This document shows, piece after piece, positions 38 through 46,579 of a DNA stretch of 64,000 nt. Source of the DNA: Candidatus Saccharimonadales bacterium (GTDB taxonomy: Bacteria > Patescibacteriota > Saccharimonadia > Saccharimonadales > 2-12-FULL-41-12); NCBI GenBank assembly GCA_025451045.1, contig JANWLD010000003.1, forward strand, positions 133,690 through 197,689. Reading direction: 5' to 3'. How positions within the stretch are numbered: position 1 is the stretch's first letter; each line of letters starts with the position of its first letter. Both the position numbers and the translations under genes were made by a program. Under the pieces are notes generated by a model. That model did not search any database. It worked only from the letters and a program-made list of their open reading frames with translations, and was not told the DNA's origin.

Positions 38-1357
38 TTATTTGCGGTCGAAGAACCAGAACTTAACAGGAGTTCCTTCAAAGCCGAACTGCACGCGAAG
101 TTCTTTTTCCATGAAGCGCTTATAGCTCCAGTGCAGGAATTTGGTATCGCTGCCGTAGATCTTGAAAGTTGGGTCCGGGTTGTCTTCTTCCTGGACCATG
201 TAGTGCAGTTTTGGCGTGCGGTTTTTTAATCCCGCTGGCGGATGCTTGGCTGATATGGCCTGAAGCCATCTGTTCAGCTCAGTAGTCCGGATTTTAGTTT
301 GCCGCTTTTGGTCAATGTCCAGCAAAAGTTCGAATATCTTGGTCACGTTATGGCCACTGATACTGCTGGTAAAAATCAGCGGCGCCCAAGGCACAAAGGC
401 AAAGTCATGGGCAATACGAGGTGCCAGCACATCGCGGGTGAAAGCGTCTTTGCCTTCAGCAATGTCCCATTTGGAAACGACTAATACCAATCCCCGGCCG
501 GCTTCTTTGACCATGCCAGCGATTTTCTGGTCTAGCTGTACATTGAGTTCATTGACATCCATTAAAAGCAGGCAAACATCAGCCTCTTCGATAGCGGACA
601 AGCTTCTAATGACGCTGAATTGTTCCACGCCTTGCTTTATCTTGCCGCTGCGGCGGATACCGGCGGTATCGAGCAATTCAATCTCTCTATTTTCGTATTT
701 GACGACCACTCGGTTAACATCGCGGGTAGTACCAGCCCTGTCAGCGACTATTGCCTGCTGTTTTTTGGCCATGGCGTTAAATAGCGCCGATTTGCCGGCG
801 TTGGGCCGTCCCAGTATTGCCAACCTCAAGCGGTCTTTTGACACCTTGATACTGGCTTTAGGGATGGACTTAGCAACGTGGTCTAGGACTTCGCTCAAGC
901 CCCTGGACTGCGAAACGCTGGTCAGGAACACTTCTTTGATACCCAGTTTTTTGTATTGTTCCGGCTCAATCTTTTTTACCCGGTCAATCTTGTTGGCTAT
1001 CAAAGCGACTGGCTTTTTAGTCCTGAGCATTTGCTTTGCCAATCTTCGGTCTTCATCGTTGATGGCGGCTCCGGCATCAATCATCATTAAAATTACATCG
1101 GCGCTGTCGGCAGCCTGAGCTATTTGTTCCTGGATGGTAAATTCAAATTCGTCTTCGGCTTCTTTGACACCTGCAGTGTCCACCAACCAAAAATCCTTGC
1201 CGCCATAGCTGGCCTTGGCCATGATGCTGTCGCGGGTGGTGCCCGGCTCATTGGCGGTTACCGCTTCGCGTTTTTTTATCGCGGCATTAAAAAAACTGGA
1301 CTTACCAACATTAGCACGCCCGACTATCGCTACTATCCCGACTTTTGTTTTACTCAC
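38..1357 (-). CDS. der: GTPase Der/EngA (two tandem GTP-binding domains)
   Basis: 439-aa ORF with two P-loops (GRANVGKSS, GRPNAGKSA), two DTAG motifs, and NKID and SKWD G4 motifs. Confidence 0.93.
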   Translation of the reverse strand: MSKTKVGIVAIVGRANVGKSSFFNAAIKKREAVTANEPGTTRDSIMAKASYGGKDFWLVDTAGVKEAEDEFEFTIQEQIAQAADSADVILMMIDAGAAINDEDRRLAKQMLRTKKPVALIANKIDRVKKIEPEQYKKLGIKEVFLTSVSQSRGLSEVLDHVAKSIPKASIKVSKDRLRLAILGRPNAGKSALFNAMAKKQQAIVADRAGTTRDVNRVVVKYENREIELLDTAGIRRSGKIKQGVEQFSVIRSLSAIEEADVCLLLMDVNELNVQLDQKIAGMVKEAGRGLVLVVSKWDIAEGKDAFTRDVLAPRIAHDFAFVPWAPLIFTSSISGHNVTKIFELLLDIDQKRQTKIRTTELNRWLQAISAKHPPAGLKNRTPKLHYMVQEEDNPDPTFKIYGSDTKFLHWSYKRFMEKELRVQFGFEGTPVKFWFFDRK

Positions 1358-2107: not shown

Positions 2108-3172
2108 TTAAAGCGAGATTTTGCTGAAATCGTCCGGATGTTCAGGTGTTTGGTTCGGCTTTTCAACCCCGCCGGGCGGCGGCGGATTACCGCCTGTTTC
2201 TTTTGCTTCTTCCTTGGCAAGGAGTGCCTGAAGATCCGGGTCTTTGGTTGGATCATGAAGCGGTTGGATAACCTTTGTATTAGGATTTTCAGAATTTGAA
2301 ACCGGGGCTGACGGGGCGGGTGTTGGTGGAGCTGGCGCCGGGGTTTCTGTAGCAGGCGCCTCTTGTGGTTTTATTACGGTCGAAGGAAGCGTGCCGCTAG
2401 GTTCGCTGGCGGGCGGATGCTTGGCATCACCGGTTTGCACCAGTGTTTTCTCTTCTTCGGCTAAGGCTTCAGCCAGATTCGGACCGATTGAAGGTTCATC
2501 GGATTTGTCATCGGCTTTATCATCAGCCTTCGGCTTTTCTTCGCCCGCACTGTCAGGCAGGGTAACTTCTATTTTTTTAGCCTCCGATTTAGGCGGTTCA
2601 GGAACGGGAGTGCTGGGCGCAGGTGCTGGTGGTGTTGGAGACGCTGCAGCTGCCGGCGCAGATGGAGCGACTGGTGGCGAGTCAGGCGGTTGGGCTTCTT
2701 TAGTACCCTCTTCCTGAGCAGGCGCTGGACTAGGCGGGGTCGGTTCGGCCGGAGCCGGTGTTTCAACCGGTTTAGCTTCCTCAGCCGCCGGCGCGGCAGT
2801 CGTTTCATTGCCCATAATCTTTTTAACTGAAGCGACAACATCCTCCAGCGTAACCTGGCTTTTTACCAGATAAAGGTCGGCCCCAAGCTTGTCGGCGCGC
2901 TCTTTGTCTTCAGCTTGCGAAAGAGCGGTCATCATAATGACTTTAGTATCTTTGGTCTCAGGGGCGTTGCGTAGGATGTCGAGCATGTCAAAGCCGCTGA
3001 TTTTCGGCATCATGACATCGGTAATAATTAAAGCCGGCTTTTCTTTGACGGCGATAGCCAGCGCTTCTTCTCCGTCCGGCGCGGAGACTATTTCGTAGCC
3101 CTCCGCAGTCAGGCGCGCTTCATAGATTTCCCTTAAATTATTGTCGTCTTCTACAAGTAGAATTTTGGCCAT
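2108..3172 (-). CDS. Response regulator, receiver domain only, with a ~230-aa Pro/Ala/Glu/Lys-rich low-complexity tail
   Basis: N-terminal CheY-like REC (LLVEDD...DVMMPKISGF...KS); the remainder is PAPA/PTPP-type low complexity with no recognisable output domain. Confidence 0.8.
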   Translation of the reverse strand: MAKILLVEDDNNLREIYEARLTAEGYEIVSAPDGEEALAIAVKEKPALIITDVMMPKISGFDMLDILRNAPETKDTKVIMMTALSQAEDKERADKLGADLYLVKSQVTLEDVVASVKKIMGNETTAAPAAEEAKPVETPAPAEPTPPSPAPAQEEGTKEAQPPDSPPVAPSAPAAAASPTPPAPAPSTPVPEPPKSEAKKIEVTLPDSAGEEKPKADDKADDKSDEPSIGPNLAEALAEEEKTLVQTGDAKHPPASEPSGTLPSTVIKPQEAPATETPAPAPPTPAPSAPVSNSENPNTKVIQPLHDPTKDPDLQALLAKEEAKETGGNPPPPGGVEKPNQTPEHPDDFSKISL

Positions 3173-3194
3173 CAGAAGCTCCCTCCGGTCGCTT

Positions 3195-3270
3195 TAGGGG
3201 TTAGGTTATAGGGGCTAGGGGTTAGAAAGTTTATCTTGGCTATAACCTGTAACCTATAACCTGTAACCTG
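3195..3270. repeat. Two opposed blocks of tandem 7-nt units
   Basis: Left block 3195-3225: TAGGGGT TAGGTTA TAGGGGC TAGGGGT TAG. Right block 3240-3270: CTATAAC CTGTAAC CTATAAC CTGTAAC CTG. AGGTTATAGG (3203-3212) is complementary to CCTATAACCT (3253-3262). Confidence 0.6.
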
Positions 3271-5294: not shown

Positions 5295-5828
5295 CTATAT
5301 TGGGTCTTTTTTGAGTTTGAGCCTGTAGCCTATGTAGCTTGATATTAAATGCATTAAGAACCAAACAATTATAATTAAAATGTATTGCTCAAGGCTTAAA
5401 ATTATAACGATAGAACTAAAAAGTAATCCGCCAACAATATAATCCAGCTGGTCAAACGGAAACCAGCTTTTACCCGAGTCCACATTAAGTTGCCTTTTGA
5501 CAAAGCTTTTGACCAAATCGCCGAATAACGCGCCAAAGCTTAGCAATACACCAAGCCAGATTGTCAGCTCGCTATAATCTAAGCCCCCTGCCGTTCCGCC
5601 GATTTGAGTCTGAAGATAAAATACCCAACTGCCCATCAATGTTCCTGCAACGATGCCGCGGATAGTTTTGTGCGGTCCGAGCAACGGCTTGCCCCGAAAT
5701 TTGCGGCCAAAGTCCAGCGGAGCGTTTAGCTCGCGTAAAACCGGTAGCTTAGCCGTGAAAATGGGCGTCATATTGGCGATACCGGCCGGTAAGAAAAACC
5801 ACAGACTGAACAAAAGGTCAGACATCAT
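5295..5828 (-). CDS. CarS-like (DUF46) CDP-archaeol synthase family membrane cytidylyltransferase
   Basis: 177-aa multi-TM protein; LPAGIANMTP...PLDFGRKF.GKPLLGPHKTIRG matches the family signature as I recall it; size fits; ATGA overlap with the upstream gene. Confidence 0.65.
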   Translation of the reverse strand: MMSDLLFSLWFFLPAGIANMTPIFTAKLPVLRELNAPLDFGRKFRGKPLLGPHKTIRGIVAGTLMGSWVFYLQTQIGGTAGGLDYSELTIWLGVLLSFGALFGDLVKSFVKRQLNVDSGKSWFPFDQLDYIVGGLLFSSIVIILSLEQYILIIIVWFLMHLISSYIGYRLKLKKDPI

Positions 5829-25081: not shown

Positions 25082-26260
25082 TTATAAAGCAATACGGGTC
25101 TTGGCGGCTTGCGCCAAAGTTTCCAGCATCCGCGCGGTGGTATCCAGCCCGACACATCCGTCGGTGACGGATTGGCCATAGACTAGTTTCTTGCCGGGTT
25201 CAAGTTTTTGAGCTCCTTCTACAAGATTGCTCTCTATCATTACGCCGCAGATATCAGGACTACCTTCGCTTACCTGACGGGCGACATTTTCAAGGACGGC
25301 TTCCTGATTACGGTAATCTTTGTTGCTGTTAGCATGCGAACAATCAATCATTATCGAAGTATTAAGGCCATTAGCGCGAAGTTTGTCCGTGGTCTCTTTG
25401 ACATGGCTTTTGTCATAATTCGCTCCTTTGCTGCTGCCACGCAGGACAATATGGCAATACGGGTTGCCTTTGGTCTTGATAGAGGCTGATTTACCCTTGA
25501 GATCTATACCTGGGAAAACATGCGATTCTTTGGAGGCGGCAATAGCATCAATGGCTATCTGTACACTGCCGCCGGTGCCGTTTTTGTATCCGACAGGGAA
25601 TGATACCCCGGAAACAAGTTCGCGGTGCAACTGGCTCTCAGTGGTACGGGCACCGATTGCGCCCCATGATACCAAATCGGAGACGTATTGCGGCGTACGG
25701 GTGCTTAACAGTTCGTAAGATACCGGCAAGCCAAGTTCGGTTATGTCGGCCAGAAGTTTTCGCGAAACCCTAAACCCCTTGTTGACATGGTAACTGCCGT
25801 CAAGGTCAGGGTCGTTAATAATTCCTTTCCAGCCGACCGTAGTACGTGGTTTTTCCAGGTATGTACGCATGACGATTTCTAACGTATCAGCGTATTTATC
25901 GCGCTGGCCTTTTAAGAAACGGGCGTATTCCATAGCCGCATCAGCGTCATGGATAGAACATGGGCCAACCACTACCAATAGCCTGCTATCTTTCCGTTCC
26001 GGTCCGACTATTTTTTCTATCGCCCGGCGGCTATTTATCACTGTTTCAGCTGATTTTTCGGATTGCGGGAATTCGCCGATGACTTGCTCAGGGCTGTCCA
26101 GCGGCAATATTTGTTCAATCCTACTATCTGTAAGTATCTGCTCTCTCATACTTTTTCTCTTAATAGATTGTACCTCATCCTCACGGATATCGTAGGGGCG
26201 ATCGGCAACCAATTCCGTTTTTGGTGCTTCTCGCGGCTTGTCTTCGGTTAAAGTTTCCAT
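25082..26260 (-). CDS. aroG: 3-deoxy-7-phosphoheptulonate (DAHP) synthase, class I
   Basis: VVVGPCSIHD, KPRTTVGWKG and IDCSHANS motifs; cannot distinguish the F/G/H isozyme type. Confidence 0.9.
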   Translation of the reverse strand: METLTEDKPREAPKTELVADRPYDIREDEVQSIKRKSMREQILTDSRIEQILPLDSPEQVIGEFPQSEKSAETVINSRRAIEKIVGPERKDSRLLVVVGPCSIHDADAAMEYARFLKGQRDKYADTLEIVMRTYLEKPRTTVGWKGIINDPDLDGSYHVNKGFRVSRKLLADITELGLPVSYELLSTRTPQYVSDLVSWGAIGARTTESQLHRELVSGVSFPVGYKNGTGGSVQIAIDAIAASKESHVFPGIDLKGKSASIKTKGNPYCHIVLRGSSKGANYDKSHVKETTDKLRANGLNTSIMIDCSHANSNKDYRNQEAVLENVARQVSEGSPDICGVMIESNLVEGAQKLEPGKKLVYGQSVTDGCVGLDTTARMLETLAQAAKTRIAL

Positions 26261-26273
26261 AAATTTCTCCTTA

Positions 26274-26306
26274 TAAAATAAAAATCGCCCGCTCTTCAGC
26301 GGACGA
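26274..26306 (-). terminator. Attenuator terminator upstream of DAHP synthase
   Basis: Minus strand: UCGUCCGCU-GAAG-AGCGGGCGA (9 bp, one G.U), then AUUUUUAUUUU; SD AAGGAG and ATG follow within ~25 nt. Confidence 0.7.
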
Positions 26307-26329
26307 GGTGCTTTTTCTTAGTAGTTTAT

Positions 26330-26410
26330 TTAAAACGCAAATTGAGCACTGTCCGCGCTAAGCGGCATAAAGTAAGTGCTAAACCAATACTGTTTTAAAT
26401 ATGTTTTCAC
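26330..26410 (-). CDS. Aromatic-rich leader peptide (V/M)KTYLKQYWFSTYFMPLSADSAQFAF
   Basis: 27-codon ORF from GTG; 8 of 26 residues are Tyr/Trp/Phe; sits between a promoter-like element and the terminator in front of DAHP synthase. Confidence 0.55.
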   Translation of the reverse strand: MKTYLKQYWFSTYFMPLSADSAQFAF

Positions 26411-26417
26411 GATTACT

Positions 26418-26447
26418 ACTATACTACATTTATTTTGCTAATGCAAA
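26418..26447 (-). promoter_or_regulatory. Putative promoter of the aromatic leader
   Basis: TTTGCA (26442-26447), 18-nt spacer, TATAGT (26418-26423), 7 nt, GTG. Confidence 0.4.
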
Positions 26448-26448
26448 C

Positions 26449-26700
26449 CTATCTTTTGAATTTGCGCTTGCCCGACCCGCGAAGTCTTCTCGCGGCTCTA
26501 GTGATCATATCCAGCTCAGGACCCTGTCTTGCCGGCGGCGTTTTCTTATCTTCTTTACGCCGTCCTTTTGGTTCTTCTGAGGCTTCCGAGGCGTCAGGTT
26601 CGGTCGAATCCTTGGCAACTATATCTTCGGCTTCGCCCGTGCTGCCTCTGACTTCAATATCATCATTCCCCAGCATTTCCATATCTATATTATAGCGCAC
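26449..26700 (-). CDS. Hypothetical disordered 83-aa protein (acidic N-terminal half, basic C-terminus)
   Basis: ORF co-oriented with the M20 peptidase gene and overlapping its end by 16 nt; low complexity, so uncertain. Confidence 0.35.
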   Translation of the reverse strand: MRYNIDMEMLGNDDIEVRGSTGEAEDIVAKDSTEPDASEASEEPKGRRKEDKKTPPARQGPELDMITRAARRLRGSGKRKFKR

Positions 26701-27767
26701 TGCTCGAGATATTTACGGAGTATAGTGGTTAGCTGAATAACTCCTTCGGCGTCCACCCACTCGCTGTCAGCATGCCGCCCGCCGCCGTTAGGCTGGATAA
26801 CGACACAAGGTATATTATGGGCACAAAAATACCGCGCGTCGGTTGAGCCGACAGAATGGCTCTTGGGGATTTTCCGGCCCAGCACTGTTTCGGCAGTCCG
26901 GATAAAGTCGATTATTTCCGGTTTTTCGGTATCTACGTTTATGCACGAGAAAAGTTCGATGTTTTTACTGTCCACGCCATGTTTTAGGCATATCTTCTCC
27001 ACTTGAGCCTTGAGACTTTCATATATTTCACTGGTTTTGAACCGGATGTCTAAAACAGCTTCGGCGTGGTCGGGAATCTGGTTCATGGCTTTGCCGGAGC
27101 TGATTTTCGTAAGCGACAGTGTCAATTCTTCGTCAGAGTAGTCTTCGCGGAGTTTGTGAAGTTCGTGTATCGTTCGGGTCAAGATTTCCGCGGCGTTTAT
27201 TCCTTTGTGAGGGACAGAGCCATGGGCGTTCTTGCCGGTTTTTGAAAGTTTGACGAACCAGGCGCCGTTGCCGGTCGACTCCAAGTGCCAGTCTTTGCCG
27301 GAATCCGGCAGAATACAAACATTGGCGCCGTAGCCTTGGTTGAGCAAGGCTTCAACGCCGTTGTGGCCGCCGATTTCTTCGTCAAAACTGAGCATAATAC
27401 CAAAATCGTATTTGGAGGTGTCTTTTCCAAGGTCATTAATTAGCTTCATATAGCTAGCGCAAGCGAATTTCATATCGAAAGTACCCCGGCCTTTCAGCTT
27501 ACCGTCTTCTCTTTTCATTTTAAAAAGCTTGTCACCCGCTGGTACGACATCCATATGGCATTGAAGCATTACTTTCGGTTTTTTGGTCTTTTGAGCGGTA
27601 GCAACGACATTAGGATAACCGTCGGACTCTATTAGCTTGGTATGCAGGCCGTGAGATTTGAAAAATTCAGCGCAATGCTCAGCGCAGGCTTTTGAGGCCT
27701 TTTTATCGGCTGTAACCGAAGCAAAGGCCACCAGTTCTTCCAGATAGTCAGCTTCACTCTTCATGCC
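26685..27767 (-). CDS. M20-family metallopeptidase/deacylase (ArgE/DapE-like)
   Basis: LQCHMDVVPAGD, GRGTFDMK and SFDEEIGG metal-ligand motifs; start placed at the internal MGMKSE (track ORF extends to 27833). Confidence 0.8.
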   Translation of the reverse strand, partial: GMKSEADYLEELVAFASVTADKKASKACAEHCAEFFKSHGLHTKLIESDGYPNVVATAQKTKKPKVMLQCHMDVVPAGDKLFKMKREDGKLKGRGTFDMKFACASYMKLINDLGKDTSKYDFGIMLSFDEEIGGHNGVEALLNQGYGANVCILPDSGKDWHLESTGNGAWFVKLSKTGKNAHGSVPHKGINAAEILTRTIHELHKLREDYSDEELTLSLTKISSGKAMNQIPDHAEAVLDIRFKTSEIYESLKAQVEKICLKHGVDSKNIELFSCINVDTEKPEIIDFIRTAETVLGRKIPKSHSVGSTDARYFCAHNIPCVVIQPNGGGRHADSEWVDAEGVIQLTTILRKYLEQCAII

Positions 27768-27801
27768 CATATTATAGGCTAAATCCGGGTAAATCGCTTC
27801 C

Positions 27802-28215
27802 TTAGGCCGCTTGCTGTATTTCGACCGGCTCAACTGTTTGAGCGGTTGATGCTCTGCCCAAGTCCTTCTCTACGTCAAGTTCGGACAGCCGATCATGCAG
27901 ATTGTGCGGAAGCTCATGGACAAGCTGGACATAATTAGTAATGGGCATGCGGATAATTGGTTTGCCTTCGGCTACCTTTATCCATGCCGCGGGCTTGCCG
28001 CGTTCCTGTTTTGCTTTGGCAAAAGTGTCGTTACGCTTGGTAAGTACCGTGCTATTCGGGTCGAAAGTGCCATCTTCGTATACATAGCGTTCAACGCCGT
28101 TTTGCATGGTCGTAACCCTCATCCTTGGCCCTTCGTATGATTCCGGATAACCCAGTAATTTCTTGCCGTCAGGATAAATTTTTCTTTGCGGCGGTTTGTA
28201 CATCTTTTTGTTCAT
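27802..28215 (-). CDS. Hypothetical 137-aa protein, first gene after the Leu/Ile/Val leader
   Basis: ORF with SD AGGAG; no recognisable motif. Confidence 0.55.
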   Translation of the reverse strand: MNKKMYKPPQRKIYPDGKKLLGYPESYEGPRMRVTTMQNGVERYVYEDGTFDPNSTVLTKRNDTFAKAKQERGKPAAWIKVAEGKPIIRMPITNYVQLVHELPHNLHDRLSELDVEKDLGRASTAQTVEPVEIQQAA

Positions 28216-28235
28216 TTCTCACTCCTCTCTAAATT

Positions 28236-28264
28236 AAAAACTCCCGCTTGGTTAGCGGGAGCTC
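28236..28264 (-). terminator. Attenuator terminator (Leu/Ile/Val leader)
   Basis: Minus strand: AGCUCCCGCU-AACCA-AGCGGGAGUU, then UUUAAUUU; the structural-gene SD lies ~15 nt downstream. Confidence 0.75.
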
Positions 28265-28287
28265 ATTTTCTTAGGTTAATTACAAGC

Positions 28288-28347
28288 TTACCCGCTGGTC
28301 TCCGGGGCCACTACTACTGCGATTGCGAGTATTAATGATTTGCTCAT
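28288..28347 (-). CDS. Leader peptide MSKSLILAIAVVVAPETSG
   Basis: 20-codon ORF; 7 of 19 residues are Leu/Ile/Val, plus 4 Ala; AGCGGG-UA-AGCU around the stop codon is complementary to the terminator 5' arm. Confidence 0.65.
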   Translation of the reverse strand: MSKSLILAIAVVVAPETSG

Positions 28348-28353
28348 AATTCC

Positions 28354-28382
28354 ACCTTACGCCTCTCTGTTAATGTTGTCAA
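28354..28382 (-). promoter_or_regulatory. Putative promoter of the Leu/Ile/Val leader, with its -35 overlapping the upstream stop codon
   Basis: TTGACA (28377-28382, contains the TGA stop of the 528-aa gene), 17-nt spacer, TAAGGT (28354-28359), 6 nt, ATG. Confidence 0.4.
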
Positions 28383-29965
28383 GCAGCTTTCTTAGCTTCA
28401 GCTTTTTGGACTCGTTCTTCGGCACGGTCAATTACATTGACAGCATGCATCAAAGCCTCAACTCCAGCTCTTTCTGAAACTTTTGATTTGGCGTGGGTGT
28501 CTATTTCGTATCCGTTATGTTTGACGGTCGCGAATATTCTGACCGCAGCATCTGAACCTTCTTCCAGATCATCAACGTGCCAGCCGCCAATATCAAACTC
28601 AAAACCTACGATAAACTGCATCACCTGCTTTGCGGCATCTACTACGCCGCCTTCTGATTTGACAGTCTTTTTCTGTCCGTTGATGGTGAGGGTTGCCTCG
28701 CAAATCCCCTCTGTGTCTCCGCTGAAAGAGAAAGTCTCAAGATTGAACTTGTCTTCCATCTTCTCCCCGGTCACTCCGCTAGCAAGTTTTTCGAGGTCAT
28801 TGTGGCCGAGATTTCTGTCTTCATTTGTTGAGAGGTCTTTAACAGCTTCCGTTACCCTCAATAGTTCATCGTCACCCACATTTACATTTAGTCTGGAAAG
28901 TTCGTATCGGACCCCGGCTTTGCCGCTTTGGTCATTTATCTTGAACTCAAAAGGCTTATCAAAACCGAATGTCGAAGAAGGAAAGTTCTTAAAGGTTCCC
29001 TCGTCTTTGATTACGCCGTCCTGATGCATGCCGGAACCGTGCACATAGCTTTTGCGGCCAATGAACGGTTGAGTTTCTGCAACACGTACGCCAAGTGCCC
29101 GCGGCGCTACGCTATGGGTCAGATTACGCAATTTCAACGGGTCGACATTTGTCCTAAGACCCAGTTCTGGCTGGACGGCTATATTACCGACCACCAGTTC
29201 TAAAGGAGTGTTGCCATTGCGCTCACCGACTCCGCCGATTGTTACCTCAACCTGTTCGGCACCGCCGAAACGCAAGGCATCCACGCTATTCATTACCGAT
29301 TGCCCCAAGTCATTGTGGCAATGGGCTGCGATGACTACATCTTTAAAGCCCTGGCTGTCCAGTTCTTCACGTACTGCCAATAGTCTTTCGGAGTATTCTC
29401 TTGGCAACATAGCCCCTACGGTATCAGGAAGCATCATAGTTGTTGCACCAGTGTTGGCTACGGCAAGAACCGTTTTTTTCAAAAACTCCAAGTCAGCCCT
29501 TGTTGAATCTTCAAACGAGAATTCTACGTCATGCGTATGTTCCTTCGCCTGTTTGGTTGATTTAACTGCGAGTTCAAGCAGGCTTTTTCTGCCCATGCCG
29601 AGACGTTCTTTTATGTGCAAATCACTGACCGGCGCGCAAACGTTAATCCGAGCCCTATCACCGGCCGGTTCCAACGCCCGGCCGGCTTGTTCTATATCTT
29701 CAGGCAGTGTTCGAGCAAAAGCGGCTATGATAGGACCGTTTACTTTATCTGCGATATTTCGAACGGTTGCAAAATTGCCGCGGCTGGATCCGGGAAAACC
29801 GGCTTCAATCACATCCGTACCGGCTTCCGCCAAGCTTTCGGCAATGTATAAGGCGTTTTCCTTATTGGCGCTTGCATCGGGTGATTGGACTCCGTCGCGA
29901 AGCGTGGTATCAAAAATTATCACATTGGTTGGTTCTTTAAGTTGTTCTCCGCCTTGCTCTCTCAT
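28379..29965 (-). CDS. LeuA/CimA-family 2-alkylmalate synthase, 528 aa (citramalate synthase inferred from its Ile leader)
   Basis: FDTTLRDGVQS, HCHNDLG, and a C-terminal LeuA-dimer-type regulatory domain. Confidence 0.88.
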   Translation of the reverse strand: MREQGGEQLKEPTNVIIFDTTLRDGVQSPDASANKENALYIAESLAEAGTDVIEAGFPGSSRGNFATVRNIADKVNGPIIAAFARTLPEDIEQAGRALEPAGDRARINVCAPVSDLHIKERLGMGRKSLLELAVKSTKQAKEHTHDVEFSFEDSTRADLEFLKKTVLAVANTGATTMMLPDTVGAMLPREYSERLLAVREELDSQGFKDVVIAAHCHNDLGQSVMNSVDALRFGGAEQVEVTIGGVGERNGNTPLELVVGNIAVQPELGLRTNVDPLKLRNLTHSVAPRALGVRVAETQPFIGRKSYVHGSGMHQDGVIKDEGTFKNFPSSTFGFDKPFEFKINDQSGKAGVRYELSRLNVNVGDDELLRVTEAVKDLSTNEDRNLGHNDLEKLASGVTGEKMEDKFNLETFSFSGDTEGICEATLTINGQKKTVKSEGGVVDAAKQVMQFIVGFEFDIGGWHVDDLEEGSDAAVRIFATVKHNGYEIDTHAKSKVSERAGVEALMHAVNVIDRAEERVQKAEAKKAA

Positions 29966-29982
29966 TCTTCTCCTTATAAATT

Positions 29983-30007
29983 AAAAACTCCCGCTTTCGC
30001 GGGAGCT
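29983..30007 (-). terminator. Attenuator terminator (Ile leader)
   Basis: Minus strand: AAGCUCCCGC-GAAA-GCGGGAGUUU, then UUAAUUU; SD AAGGAGA and ATG follow directly. Confidence 0.78.
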
Positions 30008-30032
30008 TAGCTTTCAAAAACAAAAAGTAAAC

Positions 30033-30086
30033 TTACCCGCGTGCCTCCGGGATAATAATTATTGTGTCAATAATCTGTTTACTCAT
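30033..30086 (-). CDS. Ile-rich leader peptide MSKQIIDTIIIIPEARG
   Basis: 18-codon ORF; 6 of 17 residues are Ile, including a run of four; CGCGGG-UA-AGUU around the stop codon is complementary to the terminator 5' arm. Confidence 0.7.
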   Translation of the reverse strand: MSKQIIDTIIIIPEARG

Positions 30087-30094
30087 CGTCTGAG

Positions 30095-30123
30095 ATTGTA
30101 TAACCTTGAGAATTAGTTGTCAA
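30095..30123 (-). promoter_or_regulatory. Putative promoter of the Ile leader
   Basis: TTGACA (30118-30123), 17-nt spacer, TACAAT (30095-30100), 8 nt, ATG. Confidence 0.55.
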
Positions 30124-31993: not shown

Positions 31994-32024
31994 AAATTAA
32001 AAATAGGCTTCTTGGTTGAAGCCT
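31994..32024 (-). terminator. Attenuator terminator (Leu leader)
   Basis: Minus strand: AGGCUUC-AACCAA-GAAGCCU, then AUUUUUAAUUU; SD GGAGA lies ~15 nt downstream. Confidence 0.7.
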
Positions 32025-32063
32025 GATGCTTTGGGCTGTACTGTGGCTCCGATACCCTCGGAA

Positions 32064-32141
32064 CTAGGCTTCAACCATGCTGAAGCACAGCCCTTTAAGG
32101 CTGAGTAGGAGGTCCAAGTGCTTCGCTATGTATGAAACCAT
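32064..32141 (-). CDS. Leu-rich leader peptide MVSYIAKHLDLLLSLKGLCFSMVEA
   Basis: 26-codon ORF; 6 Leu, clustered as LDLLLSLKGL; its last codons GGUUGAAGCCU(AG) are an 11-nt perfect complement of the terminator 5' arm plus loop. Confidence 0.72.
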   Translation of the reverse strand: MVSYIAKHLDLLLSLKGLCFSMVEA

Positions 32142-32150
32142 ATCAAAATA

Positions 32151-32179
32151 ACGATAACCCGCTTTAGGTCTTTTGTCAA
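32151..32179 (-). promoter_or_regulatory. Putative promoter of the Leu leader
   Basis: TTGACA (32174-32179), 17-nt spacer, TATCGT (32151-32156), 9 nt, ATG. Confidence 0.5.
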
Positions 32180-44439: not shown

Positions 44440-45468
44440 ATGACTGACAAGACTTCCGACTACAAAATTGCGACTCTTGGGAGCCATTCCGCGCTTCAGA
44501 TACTAAAAGGCGCGCGCGACGAAGGCTTTAAAACAATGATAATCGCCCTCAAGGGACGGACTCAGCCGTATGAGTCTTTCAAAGTTGCCGATGAGATAAT
44601 TGAGCTGGAATCATTCAAGGACCTCCCCGGTTTGGAACAGCGGCTGATTGATGAGAATGTGATTTTAGTACCGCACGGCTCATTTTTTAGCGCCTATACC
44701 GATTTGGAGGCATTAAACCAATCCGACGCGCTTTACTTCGGTAATAAAAAGATTTTGCCATGGGAACAAAGCCGGACTAAACAGCGTGAATGGCTGAAAA
44801 AAGCCGGACTGACCCTGCCGAAGATTTATGATAAGCCCGAAGATATCGACGGCCCTTGCATCATCAAGTTTTATGGTGCTGGCGGCGGCAAAGGATACTT
44901 TTTGGCCAAGACCGCCGAAGAGTTTTATGAAAAAATCAAACCTCATAAAGACAAGAGATACATAATCCAGCAATACATCGTCGGAGCGCCGCTGTATGTA
45001 CATTACTTCTACTCGCCGCTAACAGGCGAGCTCGAAGTGATGAGCATGGACAAGCGTTACGAGACCAACGTCGATTCCATCGGGCGTATAAGCGCCAAAG
45101 ACCAACTGGATTTGAATATCGAAAGCTCTTACAACATCATGGGCAACCTGCCGGTGGTAGTACGCGAATCGATGTTGCCGCAGATATTTTCTATGGGTGA
45201 AGAGGTCGTTAAGGTTTCCAAGAAACTGGAGCCGGGCGGACTCACCGGACCGTTTTGCCTGGAAACAATAGTCACGCCGGAACTGGAATTTTATGTATTT
45301 GAAATTTCCGCCCGCATCGTCGCGGGGACTAATCCGTACATCAACGGCTCGCCCTATACTGATCTTCGTTACAAAGAACCAATGAGTACCGGTCGCCGCG
45401 TAGCACGAGAGATAAAGCTAGCATTAGAAAGTGATGAAATAGAAAAGGTTTTGATAAATGGCAATTGA
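44440..45468 (+). CDS. purP: Archaeal-type 5-formaminoimidazole-4-carboxamide ribonucleotide (FAICAR) synthetase, PurP family
   Basis: IATLGSHSALQILKGARDEGFKT N-terminal signature, then an ATP-grasp region. Confidence 0.78.
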   Translation: MTDKTSDYKIATLGSHSALQILKGARDEGFKTMIIALKGRTQPYESFKVADEIIELESFKDLPGLEQRLIDENVILVPHGSFFSAYTDLEALNQSDALYFGNKKILPWEQSRTKQREWLKKAGLTLPKIYDKPEDIDGPCIIKFYGAGGGKGYFLAKTAEEFYEKIKPHKDKRYIIQQYIVGAPLYVHYFYSPLTGELEVMSMDKRYETNVDSIGRISAKDQLDLNIESSYNIMGNLPVVVRESMLPQIFSMGEEVVKVSKKLEPGGLTGPFCLETIVTPELEFYVFEISARIVAGTNPYINGSPYTDLRYKEPMSTGRRVAREIKLALESDEIEKVLINGN

Positions 45469-46579
45469 CAGCAGCAAACTACTAGACGGTTATGACTTGA
45501 ATAACATTCGCATTGCTACGCTCGGCGGACATAGCGCGCTGGACGTATGCCGCGGCGCGAAGAGCGAAGGGTTCGAAACGGTCGTTGTAGCCCAAAAAGA
45601 CCGCGCCAAGACTTTTACCGATTATTACAAAACCCGCGGTAACAAAGGCTGTGTCGACCATGTCATCTTGGTAGATGATTTCGCGGACGTAGCCAAGCCG
45701 GAAATCCAGAAACAACTACGCGAATTAAACGCGGTATTCGTACATAGCCGTTACTTTTGGGTTTACTGCGATATCAACCAGATTGAAAATGATTTTAACG
45801 TGCCGATTATCGGCAACCGGGTGCTGGTGCGCAAAGAAGAGCGCGACGAAGAAAAAAACCAGTACTTCCTACTCAAAGAAGCCGGTATAAATATCCCGAA
45901 ACAGTTTGCTGATCCAAAAGACATTGACCGTCAGGTTATCGTCAAGGCTGCCGAAGCGAACCGTAAGTATGAGCGGGCCTTTTTCTTGGTGCATAGCTAT
46001 GAAGACTATCTGGCCGAGTCCAAGAAACGTTTGGACAGCGGCGCTATAGATAAGCAGTCTTTAGACAATGCGATTATCGAAGAATTTGTTCTTGGTCCGC
46101 AATTGAACTTGAATTTCTTTTATTCGCCAGTTACGGATGAGCTGGAGCTACTGGGAACTGACACTCGCCGCCAGACTAATATAGATGGTCTCTTGCGCCT
46201 GACCGCAACTGAGCAGACTGAAGTATTGAAGCACGTCCGGCCGCAATATATCGAGAACGGACATATAGCCGTCACTATAAAAGAATCTTTGCTGGAAAAG
46301 GCATATGAAGCCGGCGAGAAGTTTGTTGAGTCGGTTGCCAAGCATTATCCGCCCGGTATGATTGGCCCGTTTGCCCTCCAAGGCGCGATTACCCCCGGCC
46401 CGCCAAAAGAAAAATTGTTTGTTTTTGACGTGAGCATGCGCATTCCCGGCAGTCCCGGTACAATGTTTACGCCCTACTCCGGCTATATGTACGGTGAAAA
46501 TATGAGCGTTGGCAAGCGCCTGGCCATGGAAGTCAAACAAGCCATAGCCGAAAATAAATTAGATCTATTAATTACTTAA
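45458..46579 (+). CDS. PurP-family paralog (second ATP-grasp formate-dependent ligase-like gene)
   Basis: IATLGGHSALDVCRGAKSEGFET; overlaps the first purP by 11 nt. Confidence 0.72.
   Translation: MAIDSSKLLDGYDLNNIRIATLGGHSALDVCRGAKSEGFETVVVAQKDRAKTFTDYYKTRGNKGCVDHVILVDDFADVAKPEIQKQLRELNAVFVHSRYFWVYCDINQIENDFNVPIIGNRVLVRKEERDEEKNQYFLLKEAGINIPKQFADPKDIDRQVIVKAAEANRKYERAFFLVHSYEDYLAESKKRLDSGAIDKQSLDNAIIEEFVLGPQLNLNFFYSPVTDELELLGTDTRRQTNIDGLLRLTATEQTEVLKHVRPQYIENGHIAVTIKESLLEKAYEAGEKFVESVAKHYPPGMIGPFALQGAITPGPPKEKLFVFDVSMRIPGSPGTMFTPYSGYMYGENMSVGKRLAMEVKQAIAENKLDLLIT

Follow-up and report, generated by a model that had tools for sequence, protein, structure and literature searches.

How would a bacterium of the order Saccharimonadales match the synthesis of a single amino acid to its supply? 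The question is raised by a stretch of 64,000 nucleotides from Candidatus Saccharimonadales bacterium (contig JANWLD010000003.1, positions 133,690 to 197,689; the window, below, is this whole 64-kb stretch), in which a promoter, a short open reading frame (ORF) with a run of isoleucine codons and a terminator-like hairpin precede the gene for a 528-amino-acid (528-aa) protein of the LeuA family. We call this arrangement the Ile leader. Comparison with related loci and folding of the leader RNAs suggest that it is probably a classical ribosome-mediated attenuator, one that responds to charged tRNA-Ile and controls a divergent LeuA-family paralog in this Saccharimonadales genome.

The isoleucine leader and its alternative RNA structures

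All features of the Ile leader, namely the promoter, the ORF, the terminator, the Shine-Dalgarno (SD) site and the 528-aa gene, lie on the minus strand (Table 1). The original prediction had read the layout as TTGACA-N17-TACAAT-N8-ATG followed by the ORF, a terminator and an SD site, and each of these elements is found where it was placed. The promoter, which had been singled out as the best match, agrees with the consensus at 11 of 12 positions and ranked first in a scan of the region from 27.5 to 32.5 kb. Its -35 element begins 8 nt past the stop codon of an upstream 616-aa gene, and 8 nt separate its -10 element, TACAAT, from the leader start codon (ATG, 30086..30084). The ORF reads ATG AGT AAA CAG ATT ATT GAC ACA ATA ATT ATT ATC CCG GAG GCA CGC GGG TAA, with isoleucine at 6 of 17 codons, all three codons (ATT, ATA and ATC) in use and neither leucine nor valine present, as first described. 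Downstream of it stands a 10-bp stem with six GC pairs and a GAAA loop (AAGCTCCCGC-GAAA-GCGGGAGTTT, 30008..29985), followed by TTAATTT (UUAAUUU in the RNA) and flagged as terminator-like in a hairpin scan; the 528-aa ORF opens with an ATG at 29965.

We compared the window with related loci, labeled L001, L003, L084 and so on. Five of them (L001, L003, L084, L085 and L086) were retrieved through similarity to the 528-aa protein and not through the RNA, and the Ile leaders at loci found in this way encode MSKQIIIDSIIIIPEISG, MSKQIIIAEIIIIPGGRG, (V)SKQIIISEIIIPDRG, MSRQIIIAEIIISPGGRG and MSRQTIKAEIIIIPGERG. A scan of metagenomes with the terminator pattern added MSKQIIISIIISPPRG, MSRQTIIAEIIIIPGERG, MSKLIIICEIIIPGSGG, MSKKMIINPIIIIPEISG and (V)SKQIIIIEIIHPASG, and an alignment-based protein scan of contigs returned mostly generic LeuA motif matches, with L023 the sole useful locus. 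Conservation of the Ile run in orthologous leaders, on which the original prediction had staked its isoleucine-specific reading, is evident in this set: the Ile runs, with 5 to 8 isoleucines per leader, are kept in 10 orthologous or paralogous leaders through synonymous codon turnover, and ATT (33 occurrences), ATC (21) and ATA (15) interchange freely across the Ile leaders. Valine appears in none of the relatives' leaders, and a single leucine in only one.

The conservation extends beyond the run. The ORF, its frame, the Ile runs and the position of the stop codon persist in relatives whose downstream protein has diverged to as little as 53% identity, the N terminus MSK(Q) is kept among the leader peptides, and the terminator stem CTCCCGC/GCGGGAG is identical in L001, L003, L084 and L085, all four found via the protein. 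The motif GCGGGTA (GCGGGUA in the RNA), which comprises the last 1⅔ sense codons and two bases of the stop codon, is invariant in 16 of 16 aligned leaders. Because the codon before GGG may be CGC, AGC, TGC or GGC, and the encoded residue varies with it, this conservation is at the level of the RNA.

The conserved motif forms one strand of a predicted antiterminator, in which GCGGG-[UA]-AGYUUR pairs with (A)AAGCU-CCCGC of the terminator 5' arm and the stop codon sits within the bulge. For the window sequence, none of 200 shuffles was equally stable, and an equivalent antiterminator is the minimum free energy (MFE) fold in all 20 leaders of the Ile scaffold that were folded, at -13.7 to -18.5 kcal/mol; the terminators of the same 20 leaders range from -14.8 to -18.7 kcal/mol. 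A shorter antiterminator, consisting only of the 5 to 6 bp of GCGGG:CCCGC pairing, was considered and ruled out by folding, which gave the longer bulged helix.

How a translating ribosome would bear on these structures was modeled by sliding an assumed footprint, from P-12 to P+13 or P+15, along the leader under constrained folding. In nascent RNA lacking region 4, the 3' arm of the terminator, the antiterminator is the MFE structure at each A-site position through the last codon of the run and is lost from the codon after the run through the stop codon, in 16 of 16 leaders in both cases. Once the ribosome is placed at the stop, full-length RNA adopts the terminator fold, again in every one of the 16. 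Across leaders, the run and region 2, which is the 5' strand of the antiterminator, are a fixed distance apart. The geometry predicted by the folding scan is that of classical attenuation.

The full leader (MFE -42.6 kcal/mol, z = -5.55) also contains a helix, P1, which encloses the whole ORF and competes with the lower half of the antiterminator. Its arms covary among leaders (GUAAAC/GUUUAC, GCAAGC/GCUUGU, AAAGCAAAU/AUUUGCUUU), and cognate arm pairs were more stable than permuted ones in 5000 of 5000 permutations, in a test that is inflated by the relatedness of the sequences. P1 may serve as an anti-antiterminator for transcripts that are not being translated.

The leaders also share an unusual beginning. 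In 17 leaders, TTGACA is kept at 29 to 35 nt ahead of the start codon, the ORFs begin 6 to 12 nt past the -10 element (in the window, 30087..30123 on the minus strand), and none of the 17 has an SD site before its start codon. The structural genes, unlike the leader ORFs, carry strong AAGGAG SD sites. Given the TTGACA distance, the 17-nt spacer and the 6-nt -10 element, leader transcripts would start 0 to 5 nt before the AUG or GUG, leaderless or nearly so.

In the mechanism that we propose, transcription in the window would start 0 to 2 nt before the leader AUG, giving a nearly leaderless message. When Ile-tRNA is plentiful, the ribosome would pass the Ile codons, reach the stop and cover region 2 (GCGGG-UAA-GUUUAC), and region 3 (AAGCUCCCGC) would pair with region 4 (GCGGGAGUUU), leaving RNA polymerase to terminate at the U-run. 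When Ile-tRNA is scarce, the ribosome would stall in the Ile run, whose end lies 12 to 13 nt upstream of region 2, and the free region 2 would pair with region 3 once it is made; no terminator would form, and the 528-aa gene would be transcribed.

Several results weigh against this mechanism. The lower helix of the antiterminator shows no significant covariation (2473 of 5000 permutations were as good), and the terminator stem, which is invariant and by whose pattern half of the leaders were retrieved, offers none. At equilibrium the full-length RNA folds mostly as the terminator even with a stalled ribosome, and truncated RNA without any ribosome prefers the antiterminator just as truncated RNA with a stalled one does. 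Because equilibrium folds of the full-length RNA fail to separate the two states, the model depends on co-transcriptional kinetics. Finally, that the leader is translated, that ribosomes stall in it and that read-through depends on isoleucine are steps that we infer from sequence. With these points set against the anatomy, conservation, alternative structures and geometry described above, we regard the interpretation of the Ile leader as an attenuator as well supported.

Table 1. Features of the Ile leader and of the gene cluster around it, in window coordinates
Feature	Coordinates	Strand	Remarks
Promoter, sigma-70 type, TTGACA-N17-TACAAT	30095..30123	-	-35 TTGACA 30123..30118; -10 TACAAT 30100..30095
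Leader ORF, MSKQIIDTIIIIPEARG then stop	30033..30086	-	Putative regulatory Ile codons at positions 5, 6, 9-12
Helix P1 (predicted)	30027..30084	-	Arms GAGUAAAC 30084..30077 (ORF 5' end) and GUUUACUU 30032..30025 (just past stop)
Region 2, antiterminator 5' strand, C-GCGGG-[UA]-AGUUUAC	30027..30041	-	Last two sense codons, stop (in bulge) and first bases beyond
Antiterminator hairpin (regions 2:3), predicted, 44 nt	29998..30041	-	MFE -17.4 kcal/mol, z = -3.78
Intrinsic terminator (regions 3:4), AAGCUCCCGC-GAAA-GCGGGAGUUU and U-rich tail	29978..30008	-	-17.1 kcal/mol
Shine-Dalgarno site AAGGAGA of the 528-aa gene	29969..29975	-	Sequence reading
Regulated gene, 528-aa LeuA-family (DRE-TIM, Claisen-condensing) enzyme	28379..29965	-	LeuA_dimer regulatory domain; candidate citramalate synthase
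Upstream tandem paralog, 616 aa	30131..31981	-	LeuA-type; pocket H-S-N-P; own Leu leader
Leu-type leader, different scaffold	31996..32179	-	TTGACA 32179..32174; ORF 32141..32064, MVSYIAKHLDLLLSLKGLCFSMVEA then stop; terminator 32024..32005
Valine or branched-chain leader, Ile-leader scaffold	28230..28382	-	TTGACA 28382..28377; ORF 28347..28288, MSKSLILAIAVVVAPETSG then stop; terminator 28264..28238
Aromatic-type leader	26277..26447	-	ORF 26410..26330, (V)KTYLKQYWFSTYFMPLSADSAQFAF then stop; terminator 26306..26285
DAHP synthase gene (AroFGH-type)	26260..25082	-	Behind aromatic leader; TIGR00034 479 bits against a cut-off of 173

The enzyme behind the leader

What would such an attenuator control? 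The 528-aa protein has an HMGL-like catalytic domain, an HCS_D2 domain and a LeuA_dimer domain (PF00682, PF22617 and PF08502), and its catalytic and metal-binding residues R13, D14, E141, T171, H202 and H204 (E. coli numbering) are intact. It has eight close relatives at 53 to 100% identity, one of them named Candidatus Saccharibacteria, after which the next match is an ordinary LeuA at 36%. The assignment of the window to the Saccharimonadales also rests on its glutamyl-tRNA synthetase (GltX), whose best named matches, at 70 to 77% identity, nearly all carry the labels Candidatus Saccharimonadales or Saccharibacteria, with one labeled Candidatus Parcubacteria and one Patescibacteria group. 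The original prediction held that a LeuA-family enzyme under purely isoleucine control should be a citramalate synthase (CMS), which opens the pyruvate route to isoleucine. This claim survives in part: the substrate pocket and a gene replacement at a related locus speak for it, whereas the family models for CimA and the gene content of the window do not.

In E. coli LeuA, the pocket positions that set substrate size are H97, S139, N167 and P169 (PMC3370425). These positions read N-S-M-P in 8 of 8 members of the Ile-leader clade (H97N and N167M in E. coli numbering). All five Leu-leader paralogs have H-S-N-P there, and 111 further homologs of LeuA have H-S-N-(P or A). The Leu-leader paralog passes the LeuA equivalog cut-off in L001 (595 bits) and L084 (555 bits), is near it in L003 and L149 and scores 431.5 bits in L023. 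The Leu-leader gene of the window, at 616 aa, is unusually long and divergent, with 28% identity to its L001 counterpart and 221 bits against the latter's 595 on the LeuA model; its pocket residues are still canonical. By contrast, the 528-aa gene is 67% identical between the window and L001.

The gene replacement is found at L149, where the cluster order is as in the window: Leu leader, LeuA, Ile leader, a gene X, Val leader. Here, X stands behind the Ile leader MSKKMIINPIIIIPEISG (leader and gene together, L149, 2440..3618) and is not a LeuA paralog; it encodes a 349-aa protein resembling threonine ammonia-lyase (threonine dehydratase). By its gene order, L149 is a case of in situ non-orthologous displacement of the LeuA paralog. 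Since 2-oxobutanoate can be reached by either of two routes, one through threonine dehydratase and the other through citramalate synthase, the displacement supports the citramalate synthase assignment. Biosynthetic IlvA (TIGR01124, 669 bits against a cut-off of 411) also occurs behind Ile or branched-chain amino acid (BCAA) leaders in L097, L167 and L173, and in other Saccharimonadales IlvA adjoins RidA and IlvBN. The best 120 IlvA matches, a list saturated at about 60% identity, include no ortholog from the 265-kb contig that holds the window or from a related contig of 896 kb; as evidence on IlvA complementarity this is weak.

Other results count against the assignment. The 528-aa protein falls below the cut-offs of both CimA models (TIGR00977, 126.6 bits against 450; NF042433, 103.6 against 950), and it falls below those for LeuA too, the best being NF002086 at 384.8 bits against 532. 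S139 is retained in the clade, as is P169. In the Leptospira CimA structure, we take position 139 to be Tyr. The joint effect of the H-to-N and N-to-M changes on pocket size appears ambiguous. Furthermore, LeuCD and LeuB are needed to turn citramalate into 2-oxobutanoate, and a Pfam scan of 50 of the 62 called window ORFs, which took in all those of at least 150 aa, revealed no leuBCD or ilvBCDE genes, nor were leuCD or leuB found in L001.

Leptospira CimA (NF042433; PDB 3BLE), the Geobacter-type enzymes of TIGR00977 and apple MdCMS are all LeuA-family Claisen-condensing enzymes, as is the 528-aa protein, which by hidden Markov model (HMM) score lies closer to bacterial LeuA than to the known CimA families. 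Apple MdCMS is derived from isopropylmalate synthase (IPMS) and illustrates that a CMS can arise by changes at four pocket residues (PMC7826400). The 528-aa clade is changed at two of those four positions and keeps the C-terminal regulatory domain that MdCMS has lost (PMC7826400). The H-to-N and N-to-M substitutions are not described for any characterized CMS that could be checked. The Ile-leader enzymes may constitute an independently evolved clade of citramalate synthases.

The alternative that survives best accepts the attenuator and disputes only the enzyme, which could be a second IPMS isozyme or a synthase acting on some other 2-oxo acid, such as 2-oxobutanoate (giving 2-ethylmalate), 2-oxoglutarate or glyoxylate, under isoleucine control for another reason. 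The missed CimA models and the retained Ser139 and Pro169 fit this possibility, as do the best HMM and PDB matches, which are LeuA/IPMS entries (NF002086 at 385 bits; structures 3eeg and 3rmj). The Ile leader, moreover, is not tied to one enzyme, since it precedes small proteins in L089 (3383..3883, 166 aa), L111 (1017..1301, 94 aa) and L167 (minus strand, 419..856, 145 aa). In L167, the small protein behind the leader is followed by RidA and IlvA. Against this alternative, the gene directly upstream is a LeuA-type paralog that has a Leu leader to itself, and a second leucine enzyme under isoleucine-only control would be odd. In addition, the whole clade departs at two of the four pocket positions from residues that 116 LeuA homologs keep without exception or almost so, and at L149 the replacing gene shares 2-oxobutanoate as its product with the enzyme that we postulate. 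We consider a different activity possible, though doubtful, and the balance tilts toward an enzyme that supplies 2-oxobutanoate for isoleucine by the pyruvate route, that is, one with citramalate synthase activity.

Sister leaders and readings without attenuation

The Ile leader is not alone. Four amino-acid-specific leaders, of Leu, Ile, Val/BCAA and aromatic type, follow one another on the minus strand of the window. The first, upstream of the 616-aa LeuA-type gene, is built on a different scaffold with its own terminator and antiterminator (GGUUGAAGCCUAG ... AGGCUUCAACC). It has no match to an Rfam family and is kept in at least seven other Saccharimonadales loci (L001, L003, L023, L107, L149, L089 and L097). 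The Val/BCAA leader, by contrast, uses the scaffold of the Ile leader: its peptide, MSKSLILAIAVVVAPETSG, carries a run of valine, leucine and isoleucine, its terminator stem is the same and its -35 element shares bases with the stop codon that ends the 528-aa gene. Behind it lie a 137-aa ORF with no Pfam match and a gene for an M20 deacylase of the ArgE/DapE family (26685..27833, minus strand). The aromatic leader is followed by the gene for DAHP synthase and by a prolyl aminopeptidase gene; its counterpart in L001 encodes MKTHNGQIWFYNYFTARRAVRAGFMFV, followed by a stop.

Since paralogous leaders on the same scaffold bear Val/BCAA runs in place of the Ile run, the specificity appears to be written in the codons. 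That a single scaffold is paired with one codon run at one gene and with another run at another is strong evidence for the codon run as the sensor.

Reuse is also seen on the Leu-type scaffold, which in L116 (about 930..1037) has an Ile run, MSFEPTAQQRIIIPGIHGLCFSVVEAWRT, before a 361-aa gene, and which with Leu runs precedes 75-aa proteins in L089 (about 2860..2978) and in L097 (minus strand, about 3160..3262). The M20 deacylase recurs with BCAA genes, either in the order RidA-IlvB-IlvN-IlvA-M20 or as Val leader, small ORF and M20 (L172, 7991..12664; L173, 7649..11503; the window, 26685..27833 on the minus strand). In L173, a mixed leader, MSKFARNIILVIIVVLDRGCVARTAV followed by a stop, stands before RidA-IlvBN-IlvA, and a PheA-like gene is nearby. 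Neighboring genes for an AA_kinase protein and a semialdehyde dehydrogenase were considered as parts of a pathway of Lys or Arg type; this was ruled out, as their family matches are PyrH and Asd. Elsewhere, the window holds two tandem DUF1246/DUF1297 genes (PurP-like, of archaeal type; 44440..46579, plus strand) and a gene of the CarS-like CDP-archaeol synthase family (5295..5828, minus strand).

Could the Ile ORF be an accident? On that account, the hairpin would be a plain terminator of the 616-aa gene, the promoter would simply drive the 528-aa gene and there would be no attenuation. The hairpin does lie 123 nt past the stop codon of the 616-aa gene and would also block read-through from it. 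Isoleucine makes up 7.0% of the residues in the long ORFs of the window, which gives a probability of 5e-4 per ORF for at least 6 isoleucines in 16 codons and, over the 644 short ORFs of the window, about 0.3 Ile-rich ORFs expected from composition; taken alone, the composition of the Ile-rich ORF is not decisive. The Ile codons of the window themselves, moreover, form an AU hairpin (AUUAUUG-ACA-CAAUAAU).

This palindrome, however, is not kept in L003 and L107, while the Ile codons are, and an accidental ORF would not be expected to hold its frame, runs and stop to 53% downstream identity through synonymous turnover, to recur with Val runs on the same scaffold or to stay at a fixed distance from region 2. 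The promoter, too, lies upstream of the terminator, which its transcripts must cross. A blind scan of the whole window for a GC-rich hairpin followed by a U-run, an SD site and a start codon matched only four sites in the 64 kb, and a short amino-acid-run ORF precedes each of the four. What decides against chance is that no other short ORF of the window has an Ile run, that all four terminator-SD sites are run-preceded and that the leader is kept in relatives, and we hold a plain terminator with a fortuitous ORF to be very unlikely.

An RNA switch that binds a protein, a tRNA or a metabolite (a riboswitch, a T-box-like element or a repressor operator), with the ORF incidental, strikes us as no less improbable. 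The strong structure of the full leader (z = -5.55), the covariation of P1 and the nucleotide-level conservation of GCGGGUA would all suit such a switch. Yet no leader or riboswitch family reached threshold in a sensitive Rfam scan of the Ile- and Leu-leader regions, and a scan of the whole window at the gathering thresholds gave three tRNAs and no leader or riboswitch family. The best sub-threshold matches of the Ile leader were to small RNA models and to Phe_leader, the latter confined to the terminator (20 bits, with 55 required). The part of the element that varies is exactly the codon run, no conserved unpaired module for a ligand or tRNA is present in it, and its paralogs differ by the identity of the amino acid (Ile or Val here, Leu or Ile on the second scaffold), a pattern for which a ligand pocket offers no explanation. 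Least probable of all is that the Ile-rich peptide is itself functional, as a hydrophobic membrane peptide or toxin with a terminator unrelated to its translation: it is hydrophobic and its N-terminal MSK(Q) is kept, but its C-terminal codons are kept as nucleotides (NGC GGG UAR) and not as residues, the codons of the conserved MSK lie where P1 has its 5' arm, and the sister leaders swap their core to match the downstream pathway, as in the aromatic run before DAHP synthase.

Known attenuators and the biology of Saccharimonadales

The closest functional parallels to the attenuator that we propose are familiar ones. The enterobacterial attenuators ilvL (of ilvGMEDA), ivbL (of ilvBN), leuL and thrL combine an ORF with regulatory codons, a terminator and an overlapping antiterminator, and which of the two structures forms depends on where the ribosome stands. 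The Ile leader likewise has a codon-rich ORF, a terminator and an overlapping antiterminator, and leuL also precedes a LeuA gene. Whereas thrL mixes Thr and Ile codons, ilvL those for Leu, Val and Ile, and ivbL those for Val and Leu, the run in the window is of isoleucine only, and its target is a LeuA paralog and not an ilv or thr operon. The window type further departs from the enterobacterial leaders in lacking an SD site, in its predicted 5' untranslated region of 0 to 5 nt, in the stop codon within the antiterminator bulge, in the reuse of one scaffold with different runs, in a host from the candidate phyla radiation (CPR) and in having no match to an Rfam leader.

Actinobacteria, the known hosts of cultivated Saccharibacteria, have leaders of their own. 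Their ilvB leaders, upstream of BCAA genes, are short ORFs that overlap terminators and contain Ile, Val and Leu runs (Seliverstov et al. 2005, PMC1262725), and the upstream ORF of Corynebacterium ilvBNC is a BCAA-run system of the same kind in monoderm bacteria (PMC10272879). The actinobacterial leuA "LEU element" folds into a pseudoknot through pairing between Leu codons and the SD site, and for it classical attenuation has been questioned (PMC1262725). The window element differs from these ilvB and leuA elements in sequence and fold and contains a complete terminator/antiterminator pair. Staphylococcus aureus controls a full ilv-leu operon with a Leu-rich attenuator peptide that acts together with CodY (PMC5794164). 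The two peptides are alike in that each would sense one BCAA for BCAA biosynthesis, leucine in S. aureus and, in our proposal, isoleucine in the window.

Our searches of the literature turned up no account of leader-peptide attenuation, or of leuA or ilvA regulation, in Saccharibacteria or the CPR. The Ile leader is a new instance of a known regulatory mechanism, in an unexpected lineage. Attenuation by a leader peptide requires tight coupling of transcription and translation, and Saccharibacteria are commonly pictured as pure amino acid auxotrophs. Regulated entry enzymes conflict with that picture; the four leaders would mean that ultrasmall epibionts sense shortages of single amino acids through tRNA charging and regulate the biosynthetic entry enzymes in response.

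A bolder idea, to which we give little credence, is that Saccharimonadales keep only the first, feedback-controlled enzymes of these pathways (LeuA; a CimA-like enzyme or IlvA with acetohydroxyacid synthase; DAHP synthase), each under the control of a starvation leader and without the later steps. If so, the epibiont would make a committed intermediate upon shortage and hand it to its host, bypassing the allosteric control of the host, or, alternatively, the host enzymes would complete the pathway and the epibiont would harvest the end product. The 64 kb of the window and the related loci showed no leu, ilv or aro genes for the later steps, and a 2026 preprint describes amino acid pathways in a related family of Saccharimonadia as partial or incomplete. 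The presence of IlvBN, RidA and PheA in sister genomes argues against the idea and in favor of ordinary complete pathways with dispersed genes.

From its leaders one would read which amino acids are limiting for an uncultivated epibiont. The reuse of one scaffold with swapped codon runs, in turn, amounts to a natural experiment on how attenuators evolve their specificity.

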